From Acidimicrobiales bacterium (lineage in GTDB: Bacteria > Actinomycetota > Acidimicrobiia > Acidimicrobiales > Aldehydirespiratoraceae), in the NCBI GenBank assembly GCA_963422745.1, contig OY730477.1, positions 2,232,880-2,296,879 of the forward strand: 64,000 nucleotides of DNA, given 5' to 3'. A program made the position numbers and the translations under genes. The notes below the pieces were generated by a model. The model was not told the origin of the DNA. It saw only the letters and a list, made by a program, of their open reading frames with translations, and made no database searches. This document shows, in pieces, positions 63,346 to 63,619 of this stretch. Position 1 is the stretch's first letter, and each line of letters begins with the position of its first letter.

Positions 63346-63486
63346 ATGCCCACACTTAGACACTACATACTGCCTGGAGCTGTGCTGATCATTGCGTTGC
63401 TGGGTTCTGGATGTGGCTCCGGCTCCGAAGTAGTACAGACAACTACAGAAACAACGGAAACCGAAGTCACTGCCACCATCCACTAG
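63346..63486 (+). pseudogene. 5' fragment (46 codons) of a fourth C-array lipoprotein gene, truncated at the island edge
   Basis: MPTLRHYILPGAVLIIALLGSGCGSGSEVVQTTTETTETEVTATIH*. Homologous to the B4 5' end. It stops in CACTAG of the 13-bp junction repeat. Confidence 0.75.
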
Positions 63487-63619
63487 TTGATCCTCTACAC
63501 ATAACCCGCCCTCGCTCAAGCTGCGCTTCTGCGAGACTGGAACCACAGTCGTGACCAACAGCGGCGAACTGCCAATGAATGCAAACTTACGGGCTGATCG
63601 CGGCGATCGGCCCCGAGAA

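Follow-up and report, generated by a model that had tools for sequence, protein, structure and literature searches.

What process placed two exact copies of a 13-bp sequence around a 9-kb block of toxin and lipoprotein genes on an Acidimicrobiia chromosome? The window analysed here, a stretch of 64,000 nucleotides at 2.23-2.30 Mb of a single-contig genome of 3,328,718 bp, carries the direct repeat TCCACTAGTTGAT at both borders of the block (Table 1), and the 9,014 bp between the two copies contain two toxin and lipoprotein arrays. The initial annotation, which had pointed out this repeat, read it as a target-site duplication or an att core. We propose instead, with a probability of about 85%, that illegitimate recombination and not a dedicated recombinase made the 13-bp scar.

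The two copies were confirmed as the only exact ones in the genome, for which a zero-order model predicts 0.04. A 9-mer core of the repeat is not enriched genome-wide (9 copies against 17 expected), and the whole-genome count revealed no further copy of the motif beside any toxin array. The positions given in the initial annotation, between the TPP gene and the leader of toxin B and between the C4 fragment and the spacer to the OYE gene, proved to be homology breakpoints. The left copy ends at the onset of homology to the upstream regions of other toxin genes, while the right copy starts exactly where the truncated lipoprotein gene C4tr loses its homology to intact paralogs. The TPP and OYE genes that flank the block are convergent, and the OYE stop codon lies 128 nt beyond the right copy.

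Table 1. Features of the 9-kb block and its flanks, in window coordinates
Feature	Position	Strand	Remark
TPP-dependent enzyme gene, left flank	52599-54413	+	Pfam TPP_enzyme_N/M/C; synteny with relative G004 up to 54426
L, left part of the original TPP-OYE spacer	54414-54451	.	Aligns with 59205-59242 of the internal copy, 30/36
Left copy of TCCACTAGTTGAT	54452-54464	+	Starts 38 nt past the TPP stop codon (54413)
Leader of toxin B1, truncated	54465-54534	+	Homology to 7649-7721 and 59571-59614 begins here
Toxin B1: signal peptide, HD-motif domain, ricin-type lectin	54535-55878	+	Pfam RicinB_lectin_2
Lipoprotein genes C1a-C1d (n=4; units of about 775-800 nt)	55865-58967	+	
C5tr, lipoprotein gene cut right after the lipobox (J2)	59034-59101	+	90% identical to the start of C2b
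E', decayed collinear copy of the uninterrupted site	59102-59418	+	317-nt mosaic
Internal motif copy TGCACTAGTTAGT, single, 10/13	59243-59255	+	
Y, dead 3' end of an acyltransferase-like membrane gene	59419-59582	+	79% identical to 7476-7639
Toxin B2	59670-61022	+	Pfam ricin-type lectin
Lipoprotein genes C2a-C2c (n=3)	61009-63298	+	
C4tr, lipoprotein gene cut after 133 nt (J4)	63346-63478	+	97.7% identical to the start of C1d
Right copy of TCCACTAGTTGAT	63479-63491	+	Provides the stop codon of C4tr
R, right part of the original TPP-OYE spacer	63492-63619	.	63492-63644 aligns with 59256-59418, 126/153
OYE-type oxidoreductase gene, 3' part	63620-64000	-	ORF 63620-64816, past the window; weak NCBIfam OYE matches

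The genome contains five toxin arrays, three of which (B1 and B2 in the block and a fifth array outside the window) are secondary copies. B1 and B2 share 84% amino acid identity, and the ricin-type lectin is the one toxin domain confirmed by Pfam. Searches of PDB and NCBIfam with the toxin and lipoprotein sequences gave no useful match, and promoter and terminator scans returned nothing relevant. The leader of B1 comes without a part of about 170 nt, termed Y, that is found ahead of other toxins. Y measures 164 nt ahead of B2, and its counterpart at the locus of toxin A forms the last part of a long open frame; an intact acyltransferase-like gene is located there directly upstream of toxin A (about 7450-7620). 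Upstream of toxin A, a 23-nt unit (GATTCSGTAGTTGTTATCGGCAG) is also tandemly duplicated at 7626-7671. The G+C content of the 9-kb block is 51%, compared to 60% for the genome. Values differ along the region: 48-49% in the lipoprotein arrays (55879-59033 and 61023-63478), 55-56% in the toxins and 60-62% in the flanking genes.

Exactly between the two arrays lies the decayed stretch that we call E'. Its first part, 59106-59165, corresponds to the TPP 3' fragment 54064-54123 with 87% identity and is followed by a gap of 257 nt relative to the flank. Positions 59170-59252 then match the left flank at 54381-54461 (81%, E 4e-14), and 59245-59418 match the right flank at 63481-63644 (78%, E 4e-33), which includes the right spacer and the last 25 nt of the OYE gene. 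E' thus reads, in order, TPP fragment, gap, L' (59170-59242), motif copy (59243-59255) and R' with the OYE end (59256-59418), and runs collinear with the uninterrupted site, beginning at 54064 in the TPP gene and ending at 63644 in the OYE gene. The degenerate copy of the repeat that had been reported where flank meets flank is indeed there: gcactagttagtt at 59244-59256, or in register TGCACTAGTTAGT one base to the left, with its left side matching the left flank and its right side the right flank. Because the alignments of both flanks overlap on 59243-59255, both outer 13-mers are copies of one ancestral TPP-spacer-OYE stretch.

How old are these copies? Between the outer flanks (E) and E', 58 of 71 positions are identical in L and 126 of 153 in R; the leaders agree at 55 of 67 positions, and dS between B1 and B2 is 0.22. 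By these estimates the ages of the flank copies and of the array copies appear to agree, all at about 0.2 substitutions per site. The matching divergence of E/E' and B1/B2 fits a joint duplication of flanks and arrays, with the caveat that frequent gene conversion between paralogs weakens any dating by divergence. Thus B1 54880-54959 and toxin A 8082-8161 match exactly over 80 nt in genes that are otherwise 60-80% identical, the B1 leader (54490-54552) is closer to that of A than to that of B2, and C1c and C2c are 95% identical. Comparison of these sequences indicated that the toxin paralogs are probably gene-conversion mosaics. The lipoprotein genes are ordered b-b-c-d-b in one array and d-b-c-d in the other, the last gene of each being the truncated one; this order and number of genes in the two arrays needs later unequal crossing-over and gene conversion. 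The lipoprotein units also show a higher-order b-c-d pattern.

The sequences joined at the four junctions were compared using donor sequences deduced from paralogs. At J1, between the left 13-mer and the B1 leader, there is a microhomology of 3-4 nt, as the last TGAT (or GAT) of the repeat also starts the conserved upstream sequence TGATTCGGTAGTTG. At J2, between C5tr and the TPP fragment, 5-6 nt are common to both sides (GCTCG or GCTCGG), the lipoprotein genes reading GGCTCNGGCTCGG or AGCTCGG and the TPP gene GGCTCGTATCGCTCGG. No microhomology was detected at J3, which joins the OYE end to the left edge of Y. J4, between C4tr and the right 13-mer, likewise has none in strict register; the lipoprotein genes continue there with CCAC(TA), which agrees with repeat positions 2-7 once moved by one base. 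All three mismatches between C4tr and the start of C1d fall within the last 20 nt before this junction. As Ku is present in the genome, end joining may have added to the blunt junctions.

The breakpoints are non-recurrent and lie inside genes or conserved regions: in the upstream region of a toxin at J1, at the lipobox and inside the TPP gene at J2, inside the 3' ends of the OYE and acyltransferase genes at J3, and at about codon 44 of a lipoprotein gene at J4. In toxin-A coordinates, the left breaks of the secondary copies are at about 7451 (fifth array), 7476 (B2) and 7625 or 7648 (B1). On the right, the fifth array breaks off in a spacer that separates lipoprotein genes, and C5tr and C4tr are cut at about codons 23 and 44, respectively. 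With three different breakpoints on each side, these positions are not the ends of an element with its own termini. The array copies also carry dead pieces of host genes, namely the 3' ends of the acyltransferase, TPP and OYE genes, and dead 3' ends of four host genes were counted overall.

The fifth array provides a parallel case. It comprises a toxin gene and two lipoprotein genes on the minus strand at 234889-238147 (window coordinates) and lies between the two copies of a 378-bp direct repeat, which are 95% identical and occupy 234418-234795 and 238148-238525 (2467297-2467674 and 2471027-2471404 in the genome). A further 97 bp are duplicated beside this repeat, and the downstream copy has an internal gap of 410 nt. 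As at B2, the upstream duplicate adjoins Y and the downstream duplicate adjoins the end of the lipoprotein array. The duplications differ in length, being 13 bp in the TPP-OYE spacer and 378 bp at the fifth array, and they are mixed with deletions, as the 257-nt gap in E' and the 410-nt gap illustrate. The 378-bp duplication therefore indicates that insertion with a long and variable target duplication is a recurrent process in this genome. At the fifth array both copies of a duplicated dioxygenase-like gene fragment are cut at the same point, and an in-frame TGA interrupts the toxin gene (236452-237798, minus strand) at codon 162, making it a probable pseudogene. In the four relatives that were inspected, no site orthologous to the fifth-array locus was found.

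A wider comparison was made with related genomes. Synteny with G004, a close relative that is 94.5% identical over 10 kb, breaks off at 54426 and picks up again at 86796; in G004 the TPP gene is followed by 313 nt and then by the sequence at 86796. This break places the toxin block on the border of a genome-specific region of about 32 kb (54427-86795), in which metabolic genes occur and mobility genes are lacking. Besides the toxin block, the region includes the OYE gene, a sugar-type ABC transporter, SnoaL-like proteins and a LacI-type regulator. G004 is also without array A (window 7588-18847) and retains the Y/acyltransferase 3' end together with about 100 nt resembling the signal-peptide region of the toxins, remnants which argue that arrays are also lost by deletion. 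The toxin family occurs in six of 107 family genomes, with five copies in the genome studied here. The toxin loci of G004 and of a second relative, G014, show internal tandem repeats only and no flanking target duplication, and the flanking-duplication pattern is so far confined to the secondary copies of this genome.

The uninterrupted TPP-OYE site was not recovered from any of the three collections in which it was sought. Among 40 relatives compared with the reconstructed empty site, only G004 has both the TPP and the OYE gene, 550 kb apart and without the spacer. A search of the 107 family genomes with E' plus Y did not find the spacer elsewhere, and the empty-site pattern CACTAGTTNNNNNTCTACACATA gave three unrelated chance matches in JGI metagenome contigs. 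A scan of genome contigs with toxin B2 returned just one irrelevant weak match.

How could the repeat have arisen from the uninterrupted site? We hypothesize that toxin and lipoprotein arrays were copied to new sites by illegitimate recombination that would depend on no dedicated enzyme, most likely through replicative template switching, the replicative step being deduced. A growing strand would quit the target, copy a piece of a paralogous array and re-enter the target upstream of the point of exit. Re-entry upstream would double a stretch of the target and leave one copy on each side of the insert. For the 13-bp repeat we lean towards a specific version of this scheme, two overlapping target duplications, which would have resulted from two insertions into the TPP-OYE spacer or from one complex event with four template switches. 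The B2 piece (Y to C4tr, 59419-63478) would have arrived with a 166-bp target duplication (63479-63644), and the B1 piece (leader to C5tr, 54465-59101) with one of about 401 bp (54064-54464). On the inner side, the copies left by both duplications would then be contiguous and make up E', and the outer copies would have in common only the stretch reached by both duplications, which is exactly the 13 bases of TCCACTAGTTGAT. We read the repeat as a passive scar with no present function and not as a recombination site.

Two overlapping duplications explain why E' spans 54064 to 63644 and account for all four junctions, and they do so without an unobserved donor that holds E'. Neither an intermediate allele with one array nor a donor locus was observed. 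Other routes from the same starting site were considered. A plain tandem duplication predicts an R-then-L internal junction with two motif copies, and Campbell-type integration of a circle bearing E' predicts the full L-motif-R sequence on both sides; the observed order differs from both. A three-step variant (insertion, tandem duplication and a 325-nt deletion at TGAT) gives the same product and is less parsimonious than overlapping duplications.

Fork stalling and template switching (FoSTeS) and microhomology-mediated break-induced replication (MMBIR) have been proposed, in the outline given by Hastings et al. (2009, PMC2621351), for complex duplications that are joined at microhomologies and mixed with deletions. 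The locus resembles these models in its non-recurrent breakpoints, in needing no dedicated recombinase, in the mixture of duplications and deletions, and in the pieces of flanking genes that are carried along; the short microhomology at J1 and J2 may be a further point of resemblance. On the other hand, the models as outlined there derive mainly from human copy-number variants and from amplification in starving Escherichia coli, whereas here the process is deduced from an old natural scar on an Acidimicrobiia chromosome, with two of the four junctions lacking strict microhomology.

The alternative that survives best is that a 9-kb composite of B1 array, E' and B2 array, assembled beforehand, was inserted into the empty spacer in one step, in which case the 13-mer would be a true target duplication. 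Such an insertion could have occurred by template switching or by Ku-dependent end joining, with a since-lost locus or a related strain as the source. The outer 13-mers are identical at 13 of 13 positions, while E' is diverged by about 20% and its motif copy differs at three positions; if the three copies were equally old and neutral, identity of the outer pair would have a probability of about 0.08 (0.82^13). This identity would be better explained by a younger single insertion, unless evolution is slower in the functional spacer than in the relic, and for that reason the composite keeps a minor share of the probability. The microhomology of 3-4 nt at J1, the 4-6 nt match one base out of register at J4, the Ku gene and the low G+C content of the block are also compatible with it. 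Nevertheless we regard it as unlikely. Extra unobserved events would be needed to put a fragment of this very spacer between two donor arrays, and that donor would then have had to land in the same spacer out of 3.3 Mb of sequence. Neither the genome nor the 107 family genomes contain a donor copy, and it would be by coincidence that E/E' and B1/B2 have diverged equally. The 378-bp duplication at the fifth array, moreover, is not readily accounted for by end joining.

Could the 13-mer be the att core or the target-site duplication of an island that was moved in trans by a recombinase or transposase encoded elsewhere? An exact direct repeat at both ends with one diverged copy in the empty-site relic is what this predicts, and five toxin arrays scattered in one genome, with none in most relatives, also speak for mobility. 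Transposons and insertion sequences leave a short target repeat on both sides of the insert that is single-copy in the uninterrupted site, and the att cores of integrative islands are identical short sequences at both junctions. The initial annotation was right that the window holds no integrase or transposase: all matches to the searched families fall outside it. The tyrosine recombinases of the genome (PF00589) are two, at 1.32 and 1.61 Mb, and their number suggests that they are putative XerC and XerD. Serine recombinases (PF00239) and DDE_Tnp_1 and IS110 transposases are absent from the genome, rve has one match at 1.80 Mb, and Transposase_mut is represented by fragments only, at 0.04 and 0.95 Mb. 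For the families searched, there is hence no intact DDE transposase near the site. Xer-dependent integrating elements (IMEX) integrate at the 28-bp dif site near the replication terminus; inspection by eye revealed no obvious AT-rich dif-like palindrome in the 13-mer and its flanks.

The architecture of the block also argues against such mobilization. Its ends are arbitrary, cutting a gene and a conserved upstream region, and they vary among the array copies. The motif is missing from the other arrays. No terminal inverted repeats were detected (best end-to-end score of 12 compared to a shuffled maximum of 14). The duplications would measure 13, 166, about 401 and 378 bp depending on the event, and a divergence of about 0.2 substitutions per site makes the junctions old. 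In contrast to transposons and insertion sequences, there is no transposase of the searched families here and the ends are not conserved. In contrast to att cores, there is no integrase or excisionase, and neither a tRNA nor a conserved gene serves as target; no tRNA was found in 40000-64000 and no Rfam family in 52000-64000. The "attP" side would moreover fall inside a truncated gene, and tandem integration would give an attP-type internal junction, whereas the one observed is of the attB type. Of the earlier interpretation, therefore, the duplicated target with its internal relic of the empty site was borne out, and the att core or transposase footprint of one mobile island was not; mobilization in trans is very unlikely. 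It is also highly improbable that dedicated but unrecognised copy-and-paste machinery, encoded elsewhere and producing duplications of variable length, uses the 13-mer or its ACTAGT surroundings as a preferred point of entry.

The weakest explanation, two unrelated 13-mers at the block borders by chance, is next to negligible: exact 13-14-mers between two 2-kb flanks do turn up at other arrays (E about 0.03-0.05), so that the meaning of the 13-mer comes from its position and internal copy, but both outer copies lie exactly at independently defined homology breakpoints, both align to the same 13 positions of E' with flanks that continue into L and R, and the genome-wide expectation is as low as 0.04.

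In its gene content the locus resembles toxin-immunity arrays that contain orphan modules and gene-tail fossils, such as the effector-immunity arrays of the Vibrio cholerae T6SS and the TslA/TilA tandem lipoproteins of Staphylococcus aureus. Shared features are diversifying lipoprotein genes arranged in tandem behind a secreted toxin, truncated modules and gene conversion between paralogs. The usual description of those arrays is growth by displacement at one locus, whereas here whole pieces of arrays have been copied to new chromosomal sites with target duplications.

As a scar of illegitimate duplicative recombination the locus is clear yet ordinary, and it gives no indication of a new recombination system. 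It shows a toxin/immunity family spreading to new chromosomal sites in a genome with almost no mobile-element genes, and it shows that a short direct repeat together with a relic of the empty site can look like an att site or like the footprint of a transposon. The locus archives its own history in the two overlapping target duplications proposed here, a third example lies 175 kb away, and it could be used as a natural example for the study of duplicative illegitimate recombination in Acidimicrobiia.
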